The notes under the pieces: model-generated
What the model was told of the DNA's origin: nothing
Databases searched by the model: none
The model's input: the letters and a program-made list of their open reading frames with translations, nothing else
Assembly (NCBI GenBank): GCA_003216775.1
Contig: QCII01000007.1
Span: 42,682 to 106,681, forward strand
DNA: 64,000 nt
From: Prochlorococcus sp. AG-402-K21
GTDB lineage: Bacteria > Cyanobacteriota > Cyanobacteriia > PCC-6307 > Cyanobiaceae
Reading direction: 5' to 3'
Shown: piece after piece, positions 1,389-51,944 of the stretch
Layout of the letters: each line of letters begins with the position of its first letter
Numbering within the stretch: the stretch's first letter is position 1
Translations under genes and position numbers: made by a program

Positions 1389-2033
1389 TTAGTAATCCTT
1401 CCATTTTGTAAGAATCTCCCAGCTCTTGAGTCTTTGGAAAAGCCAGAAATGACCTTCGGAATTTAGATGAATTCCATCTTGCGTAATCCAATTTTTACTC
1501 CTTTTATCAGAGTACATTTCTCTAAAAGTAGGCAGAAATGGGACATTCTGATTGAGGCATACTTCCTCCATTCTCCTTTCATAAGAATTACAAAAATCAT
1601 TTGAGTACCATAGACATCCTGCGAACGGCATTTTGCTTTCGTCAACTGGTGTCAGACCAATAACAAAGACATTTGTTTGAGAGCTCATTTCATTAATTAG
1701 TCGCTCTAATCCATATTCAAATCCATCTATATCTAATTGATTTCTTCCATTTTTCTGACCAATTGCTGCAGTGTCGTTAAGGCCAACATTAAGCAGGATT
1801 GCTTTAGGTTTATTTCTTCTCGTTTCTCCTCTAGATGACCATTCTTTTTCCCATCTAGATGAAACTTTTTCTATCCCATCTCCCCTTACGCCAAGTTGAT
1901 AAATTACTGGCCCATTTTGGTTATTGCACCAATCTTTTCTAAGCCTCTCACACCATCCGCCACCTTTATTATCTCCCCATCCATAAACTGAGCTATCTCC
2001 AATTACAACTAGCTGTTTTGGTAAACTAATCAC
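1389..2033 (-). CDS. SGNH/GDSL-family hydrolase
   Basis: N-terminal VVIGDSSVYGWG (GDS block I), GLND block and C-terminal DGIHLN (DxxH block V). Confidence 0.75.
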   Translation of the reverse strand: MISLPKQLVVIGDSSVYGWGDNKGGGWCERLRKDWCNNQNGPVIYQLGVRGDGIEKVSSRWEKEWSSRGETRRNKPKAILLNVGLNDTAAIGQKNGRNQLDIDGFEYGLERLINEMSSQTNVFVIGLTPVDESKMPFAGCLWYSNDFCNSYERRMEEVCLNQNVPFLPTFREMYSDKRSKNWITQDGIHLNSEGHFWLFQRLKSWEILTKWKDY

Positions 2034-2081
2034 TATAACAGGAAAAAATAATTACTTGATTCAACAAATTATTCTTACAAA

Positions 2082-3584
2082 TCAAGTTAAACTATTTTTG
2101 ATTTTACCATTTATTAATTCGCCAATTATTGCGATGGAGCTATAAGCTATCAAAACTATTGTAACTTCTTGCCATGCGAAGGAACTTAGTGATTCTTGCA
2201 ATCGCCAACCTAGACCAACACTTCCAATGACCCCGACAATTGCAGTTTCTCTAATAATGATGTCAGATCTATAAGCGCAATATGCTAAGTAACTTTTTGC
2301 TTGTTGAGAAAATAAACCGAAAAGCCAACTAGTCTTTTTTGAGATTCCTAGAGATTTCATTGCAAGGTAATTTCTGTTGTCTTGGTCATCTAGATTTGTA
2401 AAAAGTAATTTGCTTGTAATGCCAGCGTTGTGAAGACCTAATGTTAAAGCTGCTAAAGATAAAGAAGGATAATTAAAAGTTAATAGAGTTAGAAGTATTA
2501 CCGGTGTAGGTATTAAACGGAAAAAAAATGCAAAAAATTTTATAAAAATCTTAGAAGTATTGTTGTTAAAAATTCCTATTACTAATGGAGGTAAACTAAT
2601 TGCGATTCCTGTTGATAAAAGACCTAAAATTATTGTTTCTAATATAAGTTTTAATAAATCAAATAATCCTAAATCTGTACTTGATTTAAATAAAGAAATA
2701 AGAGAATTATAATTTTCAAAATTATTATTAAAAATAAAATAAAGAAAATATGAAAAAGAAAATAAAATTGTTATAAAAAAAACTGCAATAAGAAAAATAG
2801 ATAGGATTTTATTTGTATTTATAAATTTTATTTTTTTTAATATTAATCCAGAAAGAATTATTAAAAGTGCTAAGGACCATAAATATGTCCATAACTCTCT
2901 AAAATTTAAAGTTTGGAAAGATAAAAAAATACTAGTACCTATTCCTCCAATCCCAAAAATTCCTAAAATCACCGTACTTCTTATTGAACACTCTAACCGA
3001 TATAAACCAAAGTTTTTAAATGTATTTATTATTGGATTCCATATTAAAGTTAATAAAAAAGAAAATTTAGGCGCATTTATTTGATTTATAGATTCAAAAC
3101 TTTTGTAGTCAATATTTTCTAATTGTTCAGCAAAAACTTTTGAATTTACAGCAATATAAGGTATACATATAGCTATTATTCCTATTGAAAAATTTATGCC
3201 ATATATTTGCATTAATAGTATTCCCCATACTACTTCATGAATAGATCTAATTATTGTTAGAAAAACCCTTATTATGCTGTAGAAAAAATTTGGAATATTA
3301 AAAATTTTATAAAAAATATTTGAGGATAATATTCCAAAAATAGCCCCAAAAATAATACTTACTAACCAACTAAAAAACCCAATAAAGACAGTTTCATTTA
3401 AGCGATTAATTACTGTAATGATAATTTCATTATCGATCTTGGGATTAAATGCAGAAATTAAGAATTCTTGGAATAATTTAAATCCTCCAAAATGAATATT
3501 GGTTATTAATTGATACCCTAGAGGTATGCAAACCAAAATTGGAAGAAAAGATAATGAGGTATAGTTTAATTTTAATTTATTCAA
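2082..3584 (-). CDS. phnE: phosphonate ABC transporter permease PhnE (duplicated/fused permease)
   Basis: 500-aa polytopic membrane protein immediately downstream of phnC and phnD. It has two permease-like halves. Confidence 0.8.
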   Translation of the reverse strand: MNKLKLNYTSLSFLPILVCIPLGYQLITNIHFGGFKLFQEFLISAFNPKIDNEIIITVINRLNETVFIGFFSWLVSIIFGAIFGILSSNIFYKIFNIPNFFYSIIRVFLTIIRSIHEVVWGILLMQIYGINFSIGIIAICIPYIAVNSKVFAEQLENIDYKSFESINQINAPKFSFLLTLIWNPIINTFKNFGLYRLECSIRSTVILGIFGIGGIGTSIFLSFQTLNFRELWTYLWSLALLIILSGLILKKIKFINTNKILSIFLIAVFFITILFSFSYFLYFIFNNNFENYNSLISLFKSSTDLGLFDLLKLILETIILGLLSTGIAISLPPLVIGIFNNNTSKIFIKFFAFFFRLIPTPVILLTLLTFNYPSLSLAALTLGLHNAGITSKLLFTNLDDQDNRNYLAMKSLGISKKTSWLFGLFSQQAKSYLAYCAYRSDIIIRETAIVGVIGSVGLGWRLQESLSSFAWQEVTIVLIAYSSIAIIGELINGKIKNSLT

Positions 3585-16325: not shown

Positions 16326-16372
16326 TTGACGATCCATTTCTAATGTATTTATATTAGTAGTACACACGTATT
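16326..16372 (+). promoter_or_regulatory. sigma70-type promoter (TTGACG-18-TATATT) plus conserved AGTACA-N3-GTATT element, copy A
   Basis: -35 at 16326-16331, -10 at 16350-16355, conserved element at 16359-16372. Almost identical to the copy at 18775-18820. Confidence 0.5.
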
Positions 16373-16380
16373 ACTATGTA

Positions 16381-16680
16381 ATGACTTTAGGAGGAGCTAA
16401 TGTTTGGACTAATTTTTCTTACGGTTATCGTAATGAGTCCCCAAGTGGTTGGTTGCTTAGCCCAAACCGCAGCAGATTAATTTTATTTATAAGGAATAAA
16501 AAATCTCCAAGAAATAGTATGAGAATTTTTGCTCATACATATTATGCAAATGATCTTGGAAAACCAATGTCAATTAAATCATCCACTCAAATGTATTTGG
16601 ATGATGCTTGGGATAAATGGCATGACCTTCAATTAGAGGGTTGGACTTTTGAAGAACTTGAATTACCTGAATCAGTATGA
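16381..16680 (+). CDS. small island protein, paralogue A (possibly DUF1651-like)
   Basis: 99 aa, similar over its full length to the 18826-19116 product (GWL, KKS, LG.P..IK.S, W..L..GW). Confidence 0.6.
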   Translation: MTLGGANVWTNFSYGYRNESPSGWLLSPNRSRLILFIRNKKSPRNSMRIFAHTYYANDLGKPMSIKSSTQMYLDDAWDKWHDLQLEGWTFEELELPESV

Positions 16681-16969: not shown

Positions 16970-17083
16970 TTATTTAGTTTTTATTTTTTTCTTAATTCTT
17001 AGAAAACCATAAGTTGCAAAGCCAACCAAAAACATATCCAAGTAAATATGCCAAGTAGGAAAAATCTGGTGTATTAATTCCAT
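16970..17083 (-). CDS. hypothetical 37-aa single-TM peptide
   Basis: Hand-called. TAATG overlap with the stop of the ligase-like gene. Hydrophobic core LDMFLVGFATYGFL. Confidence 0.3.
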   Translation of the reverse strand: MELIHQIFPTWHIYLDMFLVGFATYGFLRIKKKIKTK

Positions 17084-17832
17084 TAACGTTTTATTGCCAC
17101 TTGCCAATAAGGATAATCTAAATTTGATTTTTCTCTAATCAATTGTAATTTTCTAGAATTTATTTTTACTACTATTCCATCTGTTGGATATTTACTAAAA
17201 AGCTTCCCTTCTAGCCATCGTTTTCTATATACTTCAACTTGGCTCGTAAAGTTGCATGAAATATCCTGAGGGATCGTGAAGCCAAGCTTTGAAAGACTCT
17301 TTTTGGACTCATATTGGTTAAGTGTTGAATTAAGTATTTGAAATGCGCAGAAGCTAACACTTTCAGAAAATCCTTCTCTAGCTCTTAGAAATCCAGAAGC
17401 GATTCTCTGGGAGATATTTGGACTTTGGTTGGGTGCGTATAATTCACCTCTAACTTGAAGAACTCCTCGTAAAGGGAGATTATTGGGAATGTCTTGGACT
17501 TTAATAAGTTTACTAGTAACCTCTGTCCCTTTTCTTGAAATTGCTTTCTCCAAGGTTCCATCCCTATATTGCAAAGCAACAGCACAACCATCAATTTTTG
17601 GTTCAATTAATAATCTGGTATCTGCTAATAATCCTTTCAAAAATTCATCTATTGAATCCTTTTCTAATGAAGGTAAAACTAGTTTATTTTTCTTTTTAAA
17701 GTAATCACAATTAGGGTTTGTTCTTAATAAATTTTTTTCAAGTTGGTCGAACTGCTTATCAGAGATTAAAGCATTACCATTTCTATAATTATCGTCATAC
17801 CATTCAATTCGTTCTTCTAAATAAGTCTTCAT
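17083..17832 (-). CDS. stand-alone NAD+-dependent DNA ligase adenylation domain (LigA Ia + NTase only)
   Basis: Ia-like WYDDNYRNGNALISDKQFDQL, motif I EPKIDG, motif III LQVRGELY, motif IV VSFCAFQI, motif V TDGIVVKINS. It ends at PYWQVAIKR, where the LigA OB domain would start. Confidence 0.75.
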   Translation of the reverse strand: MKTYLEERIEWYDDNYRNGNALISDKQFDQLEKNLLRTNPNCDYFKKKNKLVLPSLEKDSIDEFLKGLLADTRLLIEPKIDGCAVALQYRDGTLEKAISRKGTEVTSKLIKVQDIPNNLPLRGVLQVRGELYAPNQSPNISQRIASGFLRAREGFSESVSFCAFQILNSTLNQYESKKSLSKLGFTIPQDISCNFTSQVEVYRKRWLEGKLFSKYPTDGIVVKINSRKLQLIREKSNLDYPYWQVAIKR

Positions 17833-18774: not shown

Positions 18775-18820
18775 TTGACGTCATAGAGTAGTACATTTAT
18801 ATTAATAGTACAACTGTATT
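18775..18820 (+). promoter_or_regulatory. sigma70-type promoter (TTGACG-17-TATATT) plus conserved AGTACA-N3-GTATT element, copy B
   Basis: -35 at 18775-18780, -10 at 18798-18803, element at 18807-18820. Same architecture and offsets as copy A. Confidence 0.5.
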
Positions 18821-18825
18821 GTTTT

Positions 18826-19116
18826 ATGACTTCAGGAGTAGCTAATGTTCGGACTTATTTTTATCGTGGCAGCCTTATTAACCCCCCAACTGGCTGGTTG
18901 TTTAACAAAAAAAGTGGTTTATTAATTTTTTTTGAGAGTTATAAGAAATCTGTATCTAATAACTTAAAAGTATATACTCATCTTTTCTATACAAATGAAT
19001 TAGGTGAACCAGCCCAAATTAAAAATTCAAGACTTCATTCTATTGAGTGTGCTTGTGAAACATGGAATGAATTAATCTCAGGAGGTTGGCAAATTGTTAC
19101 CAATAAATTCCAGTAA
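18826..19116 (+). CDS. small island protein, paralogue B (possibly DUF1651-like)
   Basis: 96 aa, paralogous to the 16381-16680 product. The first ~45 nt are near-identical at nucleotide level. Confidence 0.6.
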   Translation: MTSGVANVRTYFYRGSLINPPTGWLFNKKSGLLIFFESYKKSVSNNLKVYTHLFYTNELGEPAQIKNSRLHSIECACETWNELISGGWQIVTNKFQ

Positions 19117-43221: not shown

Positions 43222-43872
43222 TTAAGATTTTATTTCGATAATTTCTTCTTCAGAAACAATTGCCCATTTTTTGAATGACTTTTTGCAGGGATATCCTCCT
43301 GTTAAGTCTCCAAATGCAGGAAGATATAAAACATTTTTATTCATATCAATTGCAAAACACCTAAAAGATAATTTATCTCCATTGCTTTTTAAATATATTT
43401 TTGGATGATAATGTCCACAAATATTCAAGGTTTTATTGTTTTTTAGATTAACTGGCTCATGGCTAAAAGTAATATTTTTAGATTTTCTAATGTCAAAAAT
43501 TTTTATATTTTTAATATCACAGCCTACATCATGATTTCCGAGGATGAGTTCAACATTAGTTTTTAGTAGTTCAGGAAGATCCTCAACTTTTTTTTGAAGA
43601 GTTTTATCTATTGAATATTTGCTGTGGAATAAATCTCCCAATATTATTAACTTTTCAGGACTATATCTTTTTACTATTTTTTTTATTCTTGCGAAATTAT
43701 TTTTATCTGAATTACTAGTAAGAGGAATACCATTTTGCTGAAAATACTCAGCTTTTCCAAGATGAATATCGCATATTAACAACTCTTTTGTTTCCGGTAG
43801 AAATAAAGCTCTTGAAGGAAGCATCTCTAATAATGTATCTTCCCAACTAAATTTAAAAGAACTTTTTTTCAT
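43222..43872 (-). CDS. pdeM: ligase-associated DNA damage response phosphoesterase/endonuclease PdeM
   Basis: Calcineurin-like motifs DIHLGK, GDLFH, GNHD, GHYH. Its start abuts the helicase stop. Confidence 0.8.
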   Translation of the reverse strand: MKKSSFKFSWEDTLLEMLPSRALFLPETKELLICDIHLGKAEYFQQNGIPLTSNSDKNNFARIKKIVKRYSPEKLIILGDLFHSKYSIDKTLQKKVEDLPELLKTNVELILGNHDVGCDIKNIKIFDIRKSKNITFSHEPVNLKNNKTLNICGHYHPKIYLKSNGDKLSFRCFAIDMNKNVLYLPAFGDLTGGYPCKKSFKKWAIVSEEEIIEIKS

Positions 43873-46359
43873 TTAATCACTATATTTTTTTATAAGTTTT
43901 TCTACTCTTTTTTCTATTGGTTCATTGCTTAAAGTATTTTTAAGTCTTTCAACTAATAAAGGGAAAGCAAAAGGAGTTGGAGTTTTTATCTCGTTTAATA
44001 GAATTTTTAAATTTTTTAATCTTTCTAATGATCTAGATATTCTTTTATTTTCTAATTGATATTCTTTAACTTCTTGATGCGATTGTTTTATCAAAAGATG
44101 GTCTTCTTCATATTTAGTAAAGACATCGTAGAAAAGACTTGAACTTATTTGAAGTTGAGAAGAAGTTTTTATTTTGGTTGGATTATTTTGATTTACAAGT
44201 CCACTTATTTGGGCAATATTTTTAAATCTACGTTTTGTTAATTCTGAAAAATTAATTGCATTTTCTAGATCCTCTTCTAATTTTTTGTTATTCAAAAAGT
44301 AATCAGCTTCTTTTTTTATTATTGAAAAATCATAATCTTCTGCAGTAGTTAAGCTGAATCCAAAATCATTAGCAGTAATACTAAATGTAGATTGTTTTAA
44401 TTTTGCCAATCTCAAAGCCCATAAAAATGCAATTCCCTCATTTACAAATTTGCCATCAAGTGTAAAAACAAAAAGATTTGATAAATCCTTGGTTTTATAT
44501 ATTTCTATAAGGAATTCATCTTTCTTTGGAATATTTGAAAGAACTTTTTGTTTCTTCAATATTGGGCGTAACGAATTGAGTTCAGGATTTAAGCAATCAA
44601 AATTTTCTAGTTCGTTGCATATATCGATTTCTTTTCTCAAACTCTCACAAAGTAGATCAGAAATTGCCATTTGACCTCCAACCCATGCAGGAATTAGAGA
44701 ACTTTTTTTAGTTGATTTTTTAACGTATAAAATCATATCTCTTATTCTTACAAATTGAAGCATTTTGCCGGCAAAGTAAAATGTATCTCCAGGATTTAAT
44801 TTTGAAGCAAAATTCTCCTCTAAATTACCTAAGGATTTACCTTTCACATATTTGACATTTACAAATTTGTCACTTGTAATTGTCCCAATATTGAACTTAT
44901 GAATTCTTATTATAGATTTGTCTTTTACAAAATATTTAAAGTTTTCATTATTATTTTGTGATTCTTCTTTAACTATCTTTTTATATTTTGGGTATGCTTT
45001 AAGACATTTTCCTCCATATTCTAAAAAGTCAAGACACCAATTCCACTCTTGATCTTTTAAGTTTCTATAACTCCAGCAATTTTTAATTCTTTCTTTCTCA
45101 ATTTTTGGATCAAAGCCATTTCCACATGCCAAACTTATTAGATGTTGCAGAAGCACATCATAAGATAATTCAGGAAGTCTAATTTTCTCAGATATACCAC
45201 TTTTTATTATTCTTCTCATTGCACTAATCTCTAATAACTCTAAAGAATTAGTAGGCATAAAAATTATTTTTGATTTTCCACCTGGTCTATGAGCACTTCT
45301 TCCCGCTCTTTGGATAAGTCTAGCTAAATTCTTTGCACTACCAATTTGAACTATTTGATCTACAGGTTGGAAGTCAACTCCCAAATCTAACGAGCTGGTG
45401 CAGACTACCCATTTTATTAATCCGTCTTTAACCCCTTCCTCAACTCTTTTTCTATCTTCTTTATCCAGGGAGCCGTGATGAAGTGCAATTTTGTCTTCCA
45501 TCTCTGGGAGAAAAAATTTAAGACATTGATACCATCTTTCAGATTGGTTTCTTGTATTAGTGAATAATAAGGTGCTTTTATTTTTATCTAGGATTTTTAA
45601 TAGTGAAGAATGACTTCTAATTCCTAAATGTCCACTCCATGGAAAGGTAGTTTCCTCCTCTGGTAAAACACTTATAATTTCGATCTCTTTTTGAATATTT
45701 GTACTTATAATTTTGGGTTTAATAGCGCTCATCCCAACTATTCCTCTTGCTGCTTCTTCAATATTTCCAATAGTTGCAGACATTGCCCAAATTTGTAAAT
45801 TTTTTATATTACCTCTAAGCCAACTTAAAGATAACTCGCACTGGTTTCCTCTTTTACTACCCATCAATTCATGCCATTCATCAATAATTATTGATGACAA
45901 CTCCTTGAACAGATTATTAGATTCTTTATTAGAAAGTAAAAGAGATAAAGACTCTGGAGTGGTAATAAGAATATTAGGTGGTTTAGCTAGTTGCTTTTTC
46001 TTTTCATATGGGGTTGTATCCCCGTTCCTAATTTCAACAGTGATTTCTTTATTAAAATGTAAAGCTGCTAATTGTATGGAATTTTTTAGATCTCTACTTA
46101 GTGCTTTCAAAGGGGTTATTAATAATATTTGCACACTTTTATTATTTTTGGGATCTGCAATCTGTGATAAAGGTCCCATTAATGCAGCGTAAGTTTTGCC
46201 GCATCCAGTAGGAACTTGTATTATTCCGTTTTCCCCATTTAAAAATGCTTTCCAAGATTCTATTTGGTAGGGTAATGGCTCCCATCCATTTGAGAAGAAA
46301 AACTGTTTAATTTTAGAAATTAAATTATTTTGCTTATTATTTTTCGTAATATTTTTCAT
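43873..46359 (-). CDS. ligase-associated DExH-box helicase (Lhr-like)
   Basis: Walker A PTGCGKT, DEWH box, SAT, QRAGRSAHR motif VI, long C-terminal extension. 4-nt overlap with the ligase gene. Confidence 0.85.
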   Translation of the reverse strand: MKNITKNNKQNNLISKIKQFFFSNGWEPLPYQIESWKAFLNGENGIIQVPTGCGKTYAALMGPLSQIADPKNNKSVQILLITPLKALSRDLKNSIQLAALHFNKEITVEIRNGDTTPYEKKKQLAKPPNILITTPESLSLLLSNKESNNLFKELSSIIIDEWHELMGSKRGNQCELSLSWLRGNIKNLQIWAMSATIGNIEEAARGIVGMSAIKPKIISTNIQKEIEIISVLPEEETTFPWSGHLGIRSHSSLLKILDKNKSTLLFTNTRNQSERWYQCLKFFLPEMEDKIALHHGSLDKEDRKRVEEGVKDGLIKWVVCTSSLDLGVDFQPVDQIVQIGSAKNLARLIQRAGRSAHRPGGKSKIIFMPTNSLELLEISAMRRIIKSGISEKIRLPELSYDVLLQHLISLACGNGFDPKIEKERIKNCWSYRNLKDQEWNWCLDFLEYGGKCLKAYPKYKKIVKEESQNNNENFKYFVKDKSIIRIHKFNIGTITSDKFVNVKYVKGKSLGNLEENFASKLNPGDTFYFAGKMLQFVRIRDMILYVKKSTKKSSLIPAWVGGQMAISDLLCESLRKEIDICNELENFDCLNPELNSLRPILKKQKVLSNIPKKDEFLIEIYKTKDLSNLFVFTLDGKFVNEGIAFLWALRLAKLKQSTFSITANDFGFSLTTAEDYDFSIIKKEADYFLNNKKLEEDLENAINFSELTKRRFKNIAQISGLVNQNNPTKIKTSSQLQISSSLFYDVFTKYEEDHLLIKQSHQEVKEYQLENKRISRSLERLKNLKILLNEIKTPTPFAFPLLVERLKNTLSNEPIEKRVEKLIKKYSD

Positions 46360-47996
46360 GATATTTTTTTCATCAGTTCATAAGCATTATCTAGGCTATC
46401 GGCATCATTGATTTTTTTATCTTTTCTCCATTTTGTTATTCTTGGAAATCTTACTGCTATGCCTGACTTATGACGTTTTGAAATTTGTATTTTCTCAAAA
46501 GATATTTCGAATACCATTTCTGGTTTTAAAGATCGAACAGGACCAAATTTTTCTATTGTATTTTTCCTTATCCATTTATCTAACTCTTTAATCTCAATAT
46601 TTGTTAAACCAGAATATGCACTTGCAAATTTAATTAATTCTTGGTCTTTCCATAATGCAAAACTGTAATCTGTATAAAGACCAGCTCTTCTACCGCTACC
46701 GCCCTTTGCGTAAATTAGAACAGCATCCAGTTGCATAGGATCAACTTTATATTTCCACCAAATACCTTTTTTTCTACCAGAGGAGTATATAGAAGTCTTT
46801 TTCTTAATTATTAATCCTTCAGTATTATTTTCTCGAGATTTTTCTTTATAAGTTAAAGCATCAGGCCAATCTTTAGGGAAGATTAAATCACATATTTTGA
46901 AAATATCAGAGATATTATTCTCAGTTTTATTTTGACATTTTGAAAAATATTTTTCTAACTCAATTCTTCTATTTTCTAATTTAATTTCTCTTATATCTCT
47001 TCCATTAATCTCTAAAAGATCATAAGCAATAAAAATAATTGGATATTTTATTTGGATTGATCTAGTAGGAGATTTTCTATTTATTCTTTTTTGAAGTAAA
47101 GAAAAATCACAGGCAATTTGTTCTTTAAAATTCCAAACTAATAATTCCCCATCAAGAACAAAATCATCTTTTATATGAGACATTTTCTCTACTAATTCTG
47201 GGAAAGATTCATTGACTAATTCTTGTCCTCTTGTCCATAACGAAACATTTCCTGATCTTTTAATTAATTGCATCCTTATACCGTCGTATTTCCATTCAAA
47301 TTGAAAATCATTTATTGAATGTTTGAAGATTTTATCTTCAATAGTATTCGCTAGAAGAAACGGAAATGGTTTGGAATTTAACTCTTGAAGATTAATATTC
47401 TTGTTAACTAAAAATTTATATGAATCAATTGAAGGCTCAAAATTCCCCATCAACCTATGGGAAATAATCTCTTCATCAATATTAATTAGTTTTGATATTG
47501 ATTTTGTGATTAATCCGATAGAGACTCCTACTCTAAAAGTTCCTGTAAGAATTTTATTGAAAATTAAATGGTTATCTTCAGGTAATGTTTCCCACATATT
47601 TTTAATTTTAAAATTTTTCTCCTTCTCATTAAGTTTTGATAACTCAGGTATTGTTTTGCTTAGTAATTCATTGAGACTTATATTTGATAATTCTTTATGT
47701 CTGGAAGTAGTTTTATTTTTAAGTAATAACGTTATTACCTCAGCAGAATCACCAACTTTTAAATAACATGTATCAATTAACCATTGAGGATATTTATATA
47801 TTTGAGCAAAAAGATTTTTTAAATATCTTCCACTAATAAATCTCTTATTACTTTTCCCAGTTAATAGATATATTGCCCATGAGTTATCTATTGGTTCATT
47901 TGAAAGAAAATAACTTTTTAAAACTTCAATTTTATTATTTGTGCTATTCATTGAATCTAGATCGCAAAATAATTCTGAAAACTTATTTAAGCTCAT
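46356..47996 (-). CDS. ATP-dependent DNA ligase
   Basis: Motif I EWKYDGIR, motif III VLDGELLV, motif IV IFIAYDLL, motif V EGLIIKK, motif VI region RFPRITKWRKDK. Confidence 0.88.
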   Translation of the reverse strand: MSLNKFSELFCDLDSMNSTNNKIEVLKSYFLSNEPIDNSWAIYLLTGKSNKRFISGRYLKNLFAQIYKYPQWLIDTCYLKVGDSAEVITLLLKNKTTSRHKELSNISLNELLSKTIPELSKLNEKEKNFKIKNMWETLPEDNHLIFNKILTGTFRVGVSIGLITKSISKLINIDEEIISHRLMGNFEPSIDSYKFLVNKNINLQELNSKPFPFLLANTIEDKIFKHSINDFQFEWKYDGIRMQLIKRSGNVSLWTRGQELVNESFPELVEKMSHIKDDFVLDGELLVWNFKEQIACDFSLLQKRINRKSPTRSIQIKYPIIFIAYDLLEINGRDIREIKLENRRIELEKYFSKCQNKTENNISDIFKICDLIFPKDWPDALTYKEKSRENNTEGLIIKKKTSIYSSGRKKGIWWKYKVDPMQLDAVLIYAKGGSGRRAGLYTDYSFALWKDQELIKFASAYSGLTNIEIKELDKWIRKNTIEKFGPVRSLKPEMVFEISFEKIQISKRHKSGIAVRFPRITKWRKDKKINDADSLDNAYELMKKIS

Positions 47997-47998
47997 AT

Positions 47999-48985
47999 TT
48001 ATTTCCCAAAGAAAAGAATATTTATTGATTCCTTCTCAACTAAATATTTGCTTAAGGCTTCACTATCTCCATGATGAAAAAATACATTTTTTGCTTCAGA
48101 CTTTTTTATTACTTCCAGAATTCCATCCCAATCTGCATGATCAGAGATTGCGAATCCTTTATCATATCCTGATCTTTTTCTTAGAGCTCTTATTGACATC
48201 CATCCACTCGCAAAAGCTGTTTGAATATTTTTGAAATTTTTTAAATAAGAGCCCTTACTTAAAGATGGCGGTAATAATACTAGACTTCCTTTAAGCTCAT
48301 CAATCTTTTTTTTACTTTCGATTTTTATAGTATCTTTAATATCAATTCCAAGTTCCTTATAACAATTGTTCATTTTATAAATACTGCCATGGGAATAGAT
48401 ATTACCTTTAAAATTTGTTTTGCTAATTTCGTATAACAATCTCTGAGCTTTTCCAAGAGAATAGCAGAAAAGTAAAGAAGTTTTTTCTGGCGAATTAGTT
48501 ATCCATTTTGAAATATCATTTGCTATTTTATTTGTTTCATCCCACTTGAATATTGGTAAACCAAAAGTACATTCACTTATTAAATAGTCAGTTTTTACTA
48601 TTTCATATTGTTTGCAAGTCTCATCTTTTTGAAGCTTAAAGTCTCCTGAAATTAGCCATTTTTCTTCAGCAAATATAAACCTTATTTGGCTAGATCCAAG
48701 GATGTGACCAGATGGATGAAAAGAAATTTTTATGCCATTTATCTTAAATTCTTCTCCATATTCAAAAGTCTTAATTTTGATATTATCTCCAGCTCTTTCT
48801 TTAATAAGTATCGCAGTCTCCTTAGTAGAAATGTATTCTTCACAGCCAAATGTAAAGTGATCAAAATGAGCATGGGTTATTAATGCCTTTTTTACTGGCT
48901 TGCTTGGATCAATCCAAATATCAGCAAGTTCACAATAAAGATTCCCATCTTTATATCTAATTAAATATTCTTCTTTAGTTCTCAA
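47999..48985 (-). CDS. ligase-associated metallo-beta-lactamase-fold exonuclease
   Basis: HAHFDH (HxHxDH) motif and later H/D motifs (SGH, SDHAD). 2 nt upstream of the ligase start. Confidence 0.8.
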   Translation of the reverse strand: MRTKEEYLIRYKDGNLYCELADIWIDPSKPVKKALITHAHFDHFTFGCEEYISTKETAILIKERAGDNIKIKTFEYGEEFKINGIKISFHPSGHILGSSQIRFIFAEEKWLISGDFKLQKDETCKQYEIVKTDYLISECTFGLPIFKWDETNKIANDISKWITNSPEKTSLLFCYSLGKAQRLLYEISKTNFKGNIYSHGSIYKMNNCYKELGIDIKDTIKIESKKKIDELKGSLVLLPPSLSKGSYLKNFKNIQTAFASGWMSIRALRKRSGYDKGFAISDHADWDGILEVIKKSEAKNVFFHHGDSEALSKYLVEKESINILFFGK

Positions 48986-49020
48986 AACTACATCTCTTAC
49001 AATGAAGTTAATTTAGCTAA

Positions 49021-49434
49021 TTATGCCCATGCTTGTTTTGATAAAGCTATGGCTGAAATTGTTAGTAAAGCAATAACTACAAATTTGTTACTCCATTTAA
49101 TCATGAATGAACTAATTTTGATAAAAGAAACTCTATTAGATGGCACAATCTTTTTCTGATTCAGAATATGATAATTTTGATTATTTTCTAAGTAATTTAA
49201 ACTTTTAATCTCATTTATTAATTTAGATTCGCAAGTTGAGAGTTGTTCTACTTGATTTAATAAATCAATATCTTCTGGTCTTAATAAAGAATTTAATTCT
49301 TTAATTTGTCTTTCGTTTTTCATAAGAAATTCATTAACTATCTCATCTGCTCCTAATCCCTTCTTTATATTTAAAAGAATATTATCTCTTTCCCAGGATT
49401 TTTCAAGAGAATTTAAAATTTTGCTTATGTTCAT
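49021..49434 (-). CDS. hypothetical coiled-coil protein with C-terminal TM anchor (137 aa)
   Basis: Helical N-terminal region, C-terminal FVVIALLTISAIAL. Ends 35 nt upstream of the exonuclease gene. Confidence 0.45.
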   Translation of the reverse strand: MNISKILNSLEKSWERDNILLNIKKGLGADEIVNEFLMKNERQIKELNSLLRPEDIDLLNQVEQLSTCESKLINEIKSLNYLENNQNYHILNQKKIVPSNRVSFIKISSFMIKWSNKFVVIALLTISAIALSKQAWA

Positions 49435-49518
49435 TTTAAGTATTTTTACTTATGATAAATTATTATTTTTTTCTTCTGTGGCTTATTCCTTTAAGTAATT
49501 AGAAAAAATTATTTTTTT

Positions 49519-49794
49519 TTAAGATTTGCGAATAAGTCTGTTTGCAAAATATTTTATCTTTACCTTTTCTAAAATTTTTTTTGAACTGCTTTTGGTTTTA
49601 ACTTTATTTAAATTAATCACTTCATCTGAAACATTTTTACCAGTTTCAAAGTAATTCTTAATTTTTTCTGACTCTTCTTTATTTAATCTTTTTGTGGCCC
49701 CTTTTGCGTTGATTCCAAGCTTCTTGCAGGCTATTAGTACTCTATTACTTTCAACATTAAGAACTTTAGCAATAGTAAAAATTGGAGTGTTCAT
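49519..49794 (-). CDS. small IF2_N-domain-like (helix-rich DNA/RNA-binding?) protein
   Basis: FTIAKVLNVESNRVLIACKKLGINAKGATKRLNKEESEKI matches the IF-2 N-terminal region pattern. Confidence 0.45.
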   Translation of the reverse strand: MNTPIFTIAKVLNVESNRVLIACKKLGINAKGATKRLNKEESEKIKNYFETGKNVSDEVINLNKVKTKSSSKKILEKVKIKYFANRLIRKS

Positions 49795-49898
49795 AGAAAT
49801 TATTTTTTATAGAAAGGCATTTAATATAAATAATATATTTATAAATTAGTAATTAACTTTATTTTTAACTATTATTAATTTCAATTTTTATTGTTAGT

Positions 49899-51215
49899 TT
49901 AAGCAACCTCATCTTCGAAATTGTTTAAGTCATTAAACTTTTTGTTCATGGTAGGGTTATTTCTTGTTAATTTCTTAACTGTTAAATCTTGAGATTTGCT
50001 GTCAGCAGATAAAAGATGTTTTTTTGAGAGAATTAAAGCTTCTTTAGTCTTCTGTAAATGGGTTATTGATTTATCAATTTCTGAAATTGCATCATTGAAT
50101 CTATCTTGGGCCTGTGAAACATTTTTACCAAATGCGCTCTTAAATTGCTCAAGAGTATTTTCAAAATTAGTTATGTCGTAATTCTCGCGTTTCATCAAAT
50201 CAATTTTTGACTTGTACTTTAATGTTTCCAAAGATGCATTTCTTAGTAGAGAAATAATTGGCAAAAAGAATTGTGGTCTTATGACATACATCTTTGGAAA
50301 TCTATGGGAAACATCTACTATGCCAGAATTATATAATTCACTTTCAGGTTCTAGAAGAGAAACGAGCACTGCATACTCACAAGATTTTTGATTTCTATCT
50401 TTATCTAATTCTTTTAAGAAATCTTCGTTTTTTCTTTTATTATTTCCATTTAAACTTTCGTTCTTCATCTCAAACATTATAGATACTATTTCGATATTAT
50501 TATCAAATTCTCTAAATATATAGTCACCCTTGCTCCCTGAAGAGACATCATTATCCTTTTCAAAATATGAGTTTTTAAATGCCGTAGCACGATTAAGATT
50601 AAATTGGGTTTCGCAATGGATTTCCAAGGTTTCGCCAACCATCTTGGTTGACAATTTAGATTTCATTTCTCTTAACTCCTGAATAGTAAGGTCCCTTTCA
50701 CTAATTTTGCTTTTAAACTTTTCCTCAATTAACTTTTCATTAATTGATTGTTCAATCTTCATCTTTTCAATGGAATTGGTTAATGATGAGTTTTCTTTCT
50801 CTAAACTAGTAACTGCTTCATTTACTTTATTTTTTATAGATAATTCTGAAATTAAAGCCTGGTTTTTAATCTCATCCTTTAGTTTGCTTAATTCATTATT
50901 TAGTGAATTTATTTTATTTGTTGCCTGAATTCTTAAATCGTTTAGGGCATTTGTTTTCTTTTCTTCTGCAATATTTAATTTAGTTTCAAGGGTTTGAATC
51001 TCATTTTCTTTAATACGTTTTTGCTCAATTAACTGTATTTTTAATTCTCTCTTTAAAATTTCTAGAGCTTTTTTATTATCCTCTTCAGCCAAAAGCATTC
51101 TTTCTTTAATTTGTTTGTTAAATTCCTCATCTTTAATTTGAAGAAGTATTTCTTCAAAGCTGCTTGGATCAATTCGGAATGTTTCGCCACATGAGGGACA
51201 TTTTATGTCTTTCAT
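49899..51215 (-). CDS. Zn-ribbon / long coiled-coil / PD-(D/E)xK-like protein (DUF2130- or RmuC-like architecture)
   Basis: N-terminal CPSCGETF, about 200 aa of heptad-like K/E-rich sequence, C-terminal GDYIF...IMFEMKNE (D...ExK). Confidence 0.55.
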   Translation of the reverse strand: MKDIKCPSCGETFRIDPSSFEEILLQIKDEEFNKQIKERMLLAEEDNKKALEILKRELKIQLIEQKRIKENEIQTLETKLNIAEEKKTNALNDLRIQATNKINSLNNELSKLKDEIKNQALISELSIKNKVNEAVTSLEKENSSLTNSIEKMKIEQSINEKLIEEKFKSKISERDLTIQELREMKSKLSTKMVGETLEIHCETQFNLNRATAFKNSYFEKDNDVSSGSKGDYIFREFDNNIEIVSIMFEMKNESLNGNNKRKNEDFLKELDKDRNQKSCEYAVLVSLLEPESELYNSGIVDVSHRFPKMYVIRPQFFLPIISLLRNASLETLKYKSKIDLMKRENYDITNFENTLEQFKSAFGKNVSQAQDRFNDAISEIDKSITHLQKTKEALILSKKHLLSADSKSQDLTVKKLTRNNPTMNKKFNDLNNFEDEVA

Positions 51216-51344
51216 TTTTTAATTACGAAATTAATATTTGATAGGAATTAATATTCGAAATATTTAAAAAGAATATTATTCTTGACTTAGAATAAACAAT
51301 GATCCAATGTTATGCATTAAAAACGAAATAAATACTTGAGGAAG

Positions 51345-51713
51345 TTATATTAATCCTGATTCTTTAAGTATATTTATTTTATTTGCTAATTCTATATCTG
51401 CAGAGGATATAGAGCGATCTAATGTTTTGTGAGAGGAAACTGTGTAACCACTATCATCAACAAATTCATCTTCTGCATCTTTTAGATGCAGATTCTCATT
51501 ACGAACATCTTTTTGGTTATTCGATTTGTATGAATTTGATTTAGCAATGGTGCTATATCCAAAATTTGCAATTCCTCTTGCATCTAAAGCTTCCTCAACT
51601 AATATTCCAACAACTTTTGATCTGCTTATAGATTCGCTTTTCGATATTTCATCAATAATTTCAAGAACTCTTTTTCTTGGAAGATATCCTATCCTTTTTA
51701 CTTTATTTTCCAT
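51345..51713 (-). CDS. ribbon-helix-helix (CopG/Arc-like) DNA-binding protein
   Basis: N-terminal KRIGYLPRKRVLEIIDEISKSESISRSKVVGILVEEAL fits a beta-strand/helix/helix pattern. The C-terminal half looks disordered. Confidence 0.45.
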   Translation of the reverse strand: MENKVKRIGYLPRKRVLEIIDEISKSESISRSKVVGILVEEALDARGIANFGYSTIAKSNSYKSNNQKDVRNENLHLKDAEDEFVDDSGYTVSSHKTLDRSISSADIELANKINILKESGLI

Positions 51714-51944
51714 GAAATTTAAGATATGTCATTATCGTAACACTTCTGTCAAATGTAAAAAGGTTTTAACTGGTAGTACTAAATGTAAATTTGAATAAGG
51801 AAAGAAAGTATAATTTAAAAGAACTCTCATAGAGATTCATAACTTGATTTAGTGATTAGAGAAGTTTATGTCCTTCTCTTGATAACTAACTATTTTAGTT
51901 TGAGTCAAAATTTTAAAACCTTTTTAATTTAAATTCTGTATCTT

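Follow-up and report, generated by a model that had tools for sequence, protein, structure and literature searches.

The locus described here lies in a 64-kb stretch of the genome of Prochlorococcus sp. AG-402-K21 (contig QCII01000007.1, positions 42682–106681; hereafter the window), a low-GC segment (~23–39 % GC across 1-kb windows) from high-light (HL) clade II (HLII) of this genus. It comprises eight genes transcribed in the same direction, which encode, from the 5′ end of the block, a ribbon-helix-helix (RHH)-like protein (g122), a DUF2130 protein, a small protein with an IF2_N match (g91), a 137-aa protein (g137) and four enzymes, namely an exonuclease (Exo), an ATP-dependent DNA ligase (Lig), a helicase (Lhr-Core, hereafter Lhr) and a phosphoesterase (PdeM, or MPE). 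The spacers between them measure 129, 104, 84, 35, 2, −4 (an overlap) and 0 nt in that order. A first-pass annotation had read the block as a ligase-associated DNA damage quartet extended into a linked module by the four genes upstream of Exo; each of its ORFs and gaps is present exactly where it had been placed (Table 1).

The GC content of the block is similar to that of the remainder of the window. In an alignment of 28 HLII sequences (the window and 27 further loci), the third codon position is the least conserved in all eight ORFs, and the four extra ORFs are therefore real genes; all eight are under purifying selection. The start of g91 adds to this case: most HLII genomes use an ATG two codons upstream (93 aa; ATG TCT ATC), and in the window, where positions 49786–49800 read ATT TCT ATG, this upstream ATG has been lost and a compensating ATG is found at the Ile codon. 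None of the four extra genes has a paralogue within the window.

In the last four genes, Prochlorococcus carries the known bacterial Exo-Lig-Lhr-Core-MPE nucleic-acid repair operon, as the first-pass annotation had recognised. All four pass the curated cut-offs of the NCBIfam 'ligase-associated DNA damage response' families (Exo: TIGR04122, 387 bits, cut-off 325; Lig: TIGR04120, 509 bits, cut-off 400; Lhr: TIGR04121, 1058 bits, cut-off 850; PdeM: TIGR04123, 179 bits, cut-off 150), and Lig additionally matches NF006701 (688 bits, cut-off 543). Pfam agrees on the quartet, with Lhr matching DEAD, Helicase_C, WH_Lhr and DEAD_assoc. The closest structures in the PDB are the Pseudomonas putida 'Nuclease MPE' for PdeM (6NVO, E=2.9e-20) and Mycobacterium smegmatis Lhr for the helicase (5V9X, E=9e-54), while Lig and Exo are closest to three-domain archaeal-type ligases and CPSF73-type beta-CASP enzymes, respectively. 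The catalytic signatures are retained in the translations: the metal-ligand motifs DIHLG, GDLFH, GNHD and GHYH in PdeM, PTGCGKT (Walker A) and DEWHE (DExH) in Lhr, and EWKYDGIR as the KxDG motif of Lig. In Exo, SDHADWDGIL and TAFASGWM are both identical to the sequences of a Gemmatimonadetes homologue. The genes are adjacent and co-directional in the order Exo, Lig, Lhr-Core, MPE; the set shares its families, order, strand, tight packing and catalytic motifs with the cluster of Ejaz and Shuman (TIGR04120–TIGR04123). By analogy with P. putida and mycobacterial biochemistry, Lhr-Core would act as a 3′–5′ helicase that exposes single strands, MPE as an Mn-dependent endonuclease that would cut them, and the ATP-dependent ligase would seal the nick, with the beta-CASP exonuclease presumed to trim ends.

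Table 1. Features of the locus and of the comparison contigs. Positions refer to the window unless a contig is named; the last two columns give the log2 expression change of the orthologue in strain MED4 (n.s., not significant).
Feature	Position	Strand	Remarks	Dark vs light, 4 h	Light vs dark, 16 h
Conserved element TTGACAGAAGTGTTACGATAATGACA	51726–51753	minus	before g122; -10-like GATAAT flanked by two TGACA repeats		
g122, RHH-like gene	51345–51713	minus	122 aa; MED4 PMM0734	+1.66	+1.94
DUF2130 gene	49899–51215	minus	438 aa; MED4 PMM0733	+0.21 (n.s.)	-0.42 (n.s.)
g91, IF2_N gene	49519–49794	minus	91 aa; MED4 PMM0732	+2.20	+2.60
Palindrome TAAGTA-N4-TACTTA	49437–49452		directly upstream of g137 start codon		
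g137	49021–49434	minus	137 aa; MED4 PMM0731	-1.25	-0.31 (n.s.)
Exo, MBL/beta-CASP exonuclease	47999–48985	minus	328 aa; TTG start	-0.69	-2.12
Lig, ATP-dependent DNA ligase	46356–47996	minus	546 aa	-1.02	-1.87
Lhr-Core DExH helicase	43873–46359	minus	828 aa	-0.75	-0.89
PdeM/MPE	43222–43872	minus	216 aa; last gene of repair operon; MED4 PMM0727	+0.34 (n.s.)	+0.97
Detached PdeM/GST region, L058	13709–14931				
Detached PdeM/GST region, L060	7670–8976				
Detached PdeM/GST region, L061	19597–20816				

Both the system and its presence in HL Prochlorococcus are known. The RefSeq annotation already names the quartet genes; Kettler et al. (2007; PMC2151091) list a 'ligase, exonuclease, helicase operon' as common to all HL isolates, and Hjerde et al. 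(2020; bioRxiv 10.1101/2020.05.11.089284) record the ligase, as 'AD-Lig B', for every HL strain but for no low-light (LL) strain. These reports concern the same locus (MED4 genes PMM0727–0730), and the portions of the two papers available to us mention neither the phosphoesterase as a member of the set nor the four upstream genes. Given the 2007 report, the idea that a streamlined genome is an unexpected host for such a machine does not hold.

The arrangement of the eight genes is stable within Prochlorococcus. All HLII loci covering the region (27) carry them together with pstB, a 100-aa ORF and a string of small ORFs. Searches with the DUF2130 and RHH proteins gave only near-identical HLII sequences, and an exact-peptide scan of the genome collection gave HLII sequences and a few weak MBL matches (L034–L042), which proved to be unrelated MBL proteins. 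The Lhr query alone reached other clades: HL clade I (HLI; ~80 % identity), two low-GC Prochlorococcus lineages (70 and 66 %) and Synechococcus-like/Vulcanococcus sequences (52–53 %). The eight-gene order, near-identical spacers and both flanks are kept in MIT9515 (HLI) and in two TARA sequences (scaffold L057 and contig L059), and MED4 (HLI) carries the same eight genes (PMM0727–0734). The block had been described as lying in a variable stretch; on the contrary, the entire region, pstB and the small-ORF 'islet' included, keeps its synteny in the 27 HLII loci, HLI and two further lineages. The region is therefore not variable; HLII synteny alone cannot show linkage, and the eight-gene 'module' is a lineage-wide core synteny block rather than a demonstrated unit. 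One local difference was observed in the 70 %-identity lineage, where L057 has a photolyase gene (1693–3174) among the small ORFs upstream of the block; none is found there in HLII or HLI.

Among the four extra genes, g137 stands closest to the quartet. Its product has no family match in Pfam, NCBIfam, PADLOC or PHROGs and diverges quickly, with 37–45 % identity between lineages versus 66–80 % for Lhr. A hydrophobic C-terminus is conserved nonetheless, and the motif KWSNxFV...KQAWA is invariant across lineages. The gene ends 30–38 nt before Exo in HLII, HLI, L057 and L059, and the TTG start of Exo is retained in four Prochlorococcus lineages.

Per-gene expression data for MED4 were taken from the supplement of a 2026 preprint (bioRxiv 10.64898/2026.04.15.718746), and co-expression was measured as the correlation of iModulon weight vectors over 32 components. 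By this measure, the g137 orthologue PMM0731 correlates with Exo at r=0.81, a value reached by 0/20,000 permutations, compared with 0.17 for g91, 0.05 for DUF2130 and 0.13 for g122. After 4 h of darkness, PMM0731 also declines together with Exo, Lig and Lhr (Table 1). The first-pass annotation had described a coiled-coil protein with a C-terminal membrane anchor as part of the linked set; a conserved hydrophobic C-terminus is confirmed, and g137 alone among the four behaves like an operon member. We consider g137 to be probably the lineage-specific first gene of what would then be a five-gene operon, a feature that sets HL Prochlorococcus apart from the known cluster.

The remaining three genes behave differently. 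In MED4, Exo, Lig and Lhr fall at sudden light-dark changes while g91 and g122 rise together and DUF2130 is flat (Table 1), so co-expression does not extend to all eight genes. The fitted diel peaks are 7.1 h for g91, 9.0 h for g122, 10.2 h for g137, 12.7 h for Exo and 13.5 h for DUF2130. PdeM, which abuts Lhr without a gap, shows a weight correlation with Lhr of only 0.08. There is no canonical LexA box near or upstream of the block, and the LexA iModulon weights are negligible for all eight MED4 orthologues (absolute weight <0.025), a point in which the MED4 locus may differ from the known cluster.

Outside this lineage, the quartet genes occur without the four extra ones on the contigs compared. 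The nearest outgroup comprises three Synechococcus-like contigs (L058, L060 and L061; GC 64–68 %), which were compared at contig level. In L058 and L061, Exo-Lig-Lhr follows divergent fba and nadA, and in L060, Lhr stands alone beside a toxin-antitoxin pair, with the contig ending 850 nt away. PdeM is detached in all three, lying 5–8 kb from Exo-Lig-Lhr or Lhr beside a glutathione S-transferase (GST) gene, which is a further departure from the known cluster. This outgroup PdeM/MPE (37–39 % identity) overlaps the end of the GST gene, with a gene for a large Fer4_5 protein adjacent. None of the four extra genes, g137 included, has a match at E<=1e-3 on the three contigs, and none was found at a Gemmatimonadetes locus at which Exo-Lig-Lhr is present; co-occurrence with the quartet was thus seen within one lineage only.

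DUF2130 shows the converse pattern, occurring without the quartet. In NATL1A (LL clade I, LLI), which lacks the quartet, it belongs to an island that also holds truncated NAD ligases and hli-like genes; on Mitsuaria, Bradyrhizobium and Ralstonia replicons, and likewise in a Lachnospiraceae metagenome-assembled genome (MAG), a Coriobacteriales MAG and a low-GC TARA contig, the gene stands by itself among unrelated neighbours (two further DUF2130 contigs were too short for gene context). In none of these seven contexts is it beside the quartet, an association found in HL Prochlorococcus only. The HLII and LLI copies are 50 % identical and no closer to each other than either is to Firmicutes copies; they are not simple vertical orthologues.

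On these data, we favour the view, with a probability of roughly 0.6, that the locus consists of the known quartet operon, transcribed together with g137, and that the RHH, DUF2130 and IF2_N genes are separately regulated neighbours. The proposal of a linked eight-gene module survives for g137. By the refuting conditions that the first-pass annotation had set, it fails for the other three, which are independent neighbours by distribution and expression: DUF2130 is found in LLI Prochlorococcus and many other bacteria without the quartet and is unresponsive in MED4, and the RHH and IF2_N genes respond in the opposite direction to Exo-Lig-Lhr and are missing from the outgroup contigs. They would lie beside the quartet because HL genomes are syntenic outside islands, and not as repair subunits.

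Several observations weigh against this view. The eight-gene order is found in every quartet-bearing Prochlorococcus lineage, so that selection for linkage is possible from synteny, and a DNA enzyme such as DUF2130 would not be out of place in repair. The 35-nt g137–Exo spacer contains a -10-like TAAATT, and Exo could have its own promoter. In the light-at-night contrast, g137 departs from Exo-Lig-Lhr, and PdeM, the immediate neighbour of Lhr, departs from them in both perturbations; as PdeM does not track Exo-Lig-Lhr, expression in this MED4 data set is an imperfect guide to operon structure. The expression data also have a single, unreviewed preprint as their source and concern HLI rather than HLII.

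Some of these points lend themselves to a more sceptical interpretation, namely that none of the four upstream genes is related to the quartet and that the co-expression of g137 with Exo reflects read-through or a shared chromatin or promoter context. Both flanks are conserved like the block itself, so synteny is uninformative; in many phyla, the quartet functions as a unit of four or two genes with no partner of this kind (PMC7826289; locus L033); and g137 lacks a recognisable domain, diverges fast and follows Exo in only one of two perturbations. We nevertheless consider this interpretation rather unlikely, as the correlation with Exo extends over 32 independent components, the short gap and the TTG start of Exo have been kept in four lineages, and the invariance of the C-terminal motif indicates that the protein is under selection.

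The opposite extreme would be a single repair island of all eight genes, with the RHH protein as regulator, DUF2130 as a third nuclease and the IF2_N and membrane-tail proteins as accessory factors. The order and spacing shared by HLII, HLI and two further lineages speak for it, as do the complete PD-(D/E)xK active site of DUF2130 and the joint response of the RHH and IF2_N genes, and their regulation in the opposite direction to Exo-Lig-Lhr would fit a repressor. Yet DUF2130 is flat and never accompanies the quartet elsewhere, the Exo correlations of the three genes are 0.05–0.17, the outgroup contigs show none of the four genes, and the conserved element before the RHH gene (see below) has no second copy in the window; we judge such an island to be improbable.

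Two conserved elements were detected upstream of genes of the block. The first, TTGACAGAAGTGTTACGATAATGACA, is nearly invariant in HLII, HLI and L057, and a search tolerating up to 3 mismatches found it once in the 64-kb window; its -10-like hexamer and flanking repeats are suggestive of a promoter with an autoregulatory operator. The second is a palindrome with identical arms and a variable spacer in HLII, HLI, L057 and L059 (seen in the g91–g137 spacer of the window, L056, L057 and L059), of which the window has one exact copy. Proteins may bind to it, or it may fold as a small RNA hairpin that covers the ribosome-binding region. Its AGTA/TACT half-sites are reminiscent of a LexA box, but their spacing is wrong for the Prochlorococcus LexA consensus, and this candidate was rejected. 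These conserved footprints would fit at least three to four transcription units (the RHH gene; DUF2130; the IF2_N gene; and g137 with the operon). A promoter/terminator consensus scan performed no better than on shuffled sequences, and a repeat search of 48.9–52.1 kb returned only the AT-rich background.

The 438-aa protein, which had been described as a Zn-ribbon/coiled-coil/PD-(D/E)xK-like protein, was confirmed as a DUF2130 protein (Pfam PF09903, E=1e-77) with an N-terminal CxxC and a PD-(D/E)xK core; the family has been classed as PD-(D/E)xK of unknown function by Steczkiewicz et al. (PMC3424549). In an alignment of 56 diverse homologues (37–49 % identical to the window protein), D231 and K251 show little or no variation, position 249 has E as its consensus (E249) and the CxxC knuckle (C6, C9) is kept. 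Two further cysteines, C201 and C279, are near-invariant, and by analogy with Cas4/AddB-type nucleases, the four might form a metal or Fe-S site. The AlphaFold (AF2) model (pLDDT 84) consists of a helix of ~170 residues, an alpha/beta core (residues 197–312, pLDDT>90) and a second long C-terminal helix. The best Foldseek matches are to restriction endonucleases, DdmD, Cas4 and Can2, none of them significant (all E>=0.012). From its conserved residues, we assign DUF2130 to the PD-(D/E)xK nuclease superfamily. RmuC has a comparable architecture, with long helices flanking a PD-(D/E)xK core, and is likewise a stand-alone chromosomal gene. No homology between the two is detectable: hhalign of the DUF2130 profile against Escherichia coli RmuC gave a probability of 0.3, and there is no Pfam RmuC match; DUF2130 also differs from RmuC in the N-terminal CxxC and the two additional near-invariant cysteines. 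In a NATL1A-type genome, a T5orf172/MUG113 gene lies 40 nt after DUF2130 (L046, 10001–11876); the surrounding island also contains a pair of truncated NAD-ligase genes, hli-like ORFs and a gene of AbrB type.

The proposed RHH regulator, g122, is borne out weakly by structure prediction and not by sequence profiles, as searches against Pfam, NCBIfam and the PDB gave no match. The N-terminal 50 residues of the protein are invariant; a disordered linker connects them to a C-terminal helix that is likewise conserved. In the AF2 model, helices 13–27 and 31–45 (pLDDT>90) follow an extended segment, the strand being unformed in the monomer, and the top 17 Foldseek matches are all RHH proteins (Arc, CopG, AmrZ and StnY), with weak E values of 0.5–3; the MIT9515 orthologue has been deposited as 'copG family'. 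The predicted strand-helix-helix N-terminus and a conserved, repeat-bearing element over its own -10 region are reminiscent of the CopG/Arc/MetJ repressors, from which g122, a putative DNA-binding protein, differs in that it has no sequence-profile match and carries the linker and the conserved C-terminal helix in addition. The MED4 'CopG' regulator of two papers is PMM1176, a different gene from the g122 orthologue PMM0734, and a metagenome match (L052) to a GC-rich degenerate RHH-helix pattern was a chance match in an ankyrin-repeat ORF. The IF2_N-like call for g91 passes the Pfam cut-off (PF04760, 27.4 bits vs gathering cut-off 25.3, E=3e-6), and the HLI orthologue likewise carries this domain, which says nothing about function. 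An IF2_N gene located 3.7 kb from DUF2130 in NATL1A has no similarity to g91.

The first-pass annotation had also considered an anti-phage or anti-plasmid system. Lhr gives hits to three helicase models of PADLOC (SngC, BrxHI and DpdJ), and on one Bradyrhizobium plasmid, DUF2130 lies near TIR and caspase genes, which might be taken to indicate a defence system with an Lhr-like helicase and nucleases at its centre. The PADLOC scores, strong for the helicase alone, reflect general Lhr-family similarity. BrxHI of BREX, DpdJ and SngC belong to the same helicase superfamily; Lhr passes the TIGR04121 equivalog cut-off instead, and the partner genes of those systems are absent. Neither the ligase nor Exo nor any of the four extra genes has a significant PADLOC match, PHROGs gave no match for the extra genes, no homologues of them were found in 50,697 phage records, and IMG/VR contained no relative of Exo. 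The locus is core, syntenic and compositionally ordinary rather than an island, and we regard a defence role as highly improbable.

The history of the locus may have been as follows. The ancestor of HL Prochlorococcus would have consolidated a split, Synechococcus-type arrangement, with Exo-Lig-Lhr together and MPE elsewhere, next to pstB. Since then, the operon has probably been co-transcribed with a new upstream gene encoding the hydrophobic-tail protein g137, while the RHH, DUF2130 and IF2_N genes appear to have kept their own conserved upstream elements and expression patterns as neighbours. A more elaborate version, in which HL Prochlorococcus re-joined MPE to Exo-Lig-Lhr and added g137, whose hydrophobic tail could hold or assemble the helicase-nuclease-ligase set at a membrane, with the RHH/IF2_N pair regulating the set through the palindrome, is speculative, and we consider it doubtful.

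The outcome is narrower than the first-pass annotation had hoped: what merits attention is a single small gene (the PMM0731 family) rather than a machine of eight. HL Prochlorococcus has lost LigA, RecJ, XseA and MutY, and any partner of the cluster that is confined to this lineage could give a clue to the substrate of the cluster or to where in the cell it is located. Were the membrane-tail protein irrelevant, the locus would amount to an operon that is well annotated and has been reported before, in a core region of conserved synteny. DUF2130 deserves study in its own right as an independent, widely distributed nuclease.

Elsewhere in the window, LexA-box-like motifs (TAGTACA-N2-TGTACTA, 2 mismatches each) occur at 16358–16373 and 18789–18821, directly upstream of two paralogous small ORFs (16381–16680, 99 aa; 18826–19116, 96 aa). 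Between these ORFs, positions 17083–17832 encode a 249-aa truncated NAD-dependent DNA ligase (KIDGCAV), which is of the 'ND-Lig tr' type that Hjerde et al. place in HL islands.

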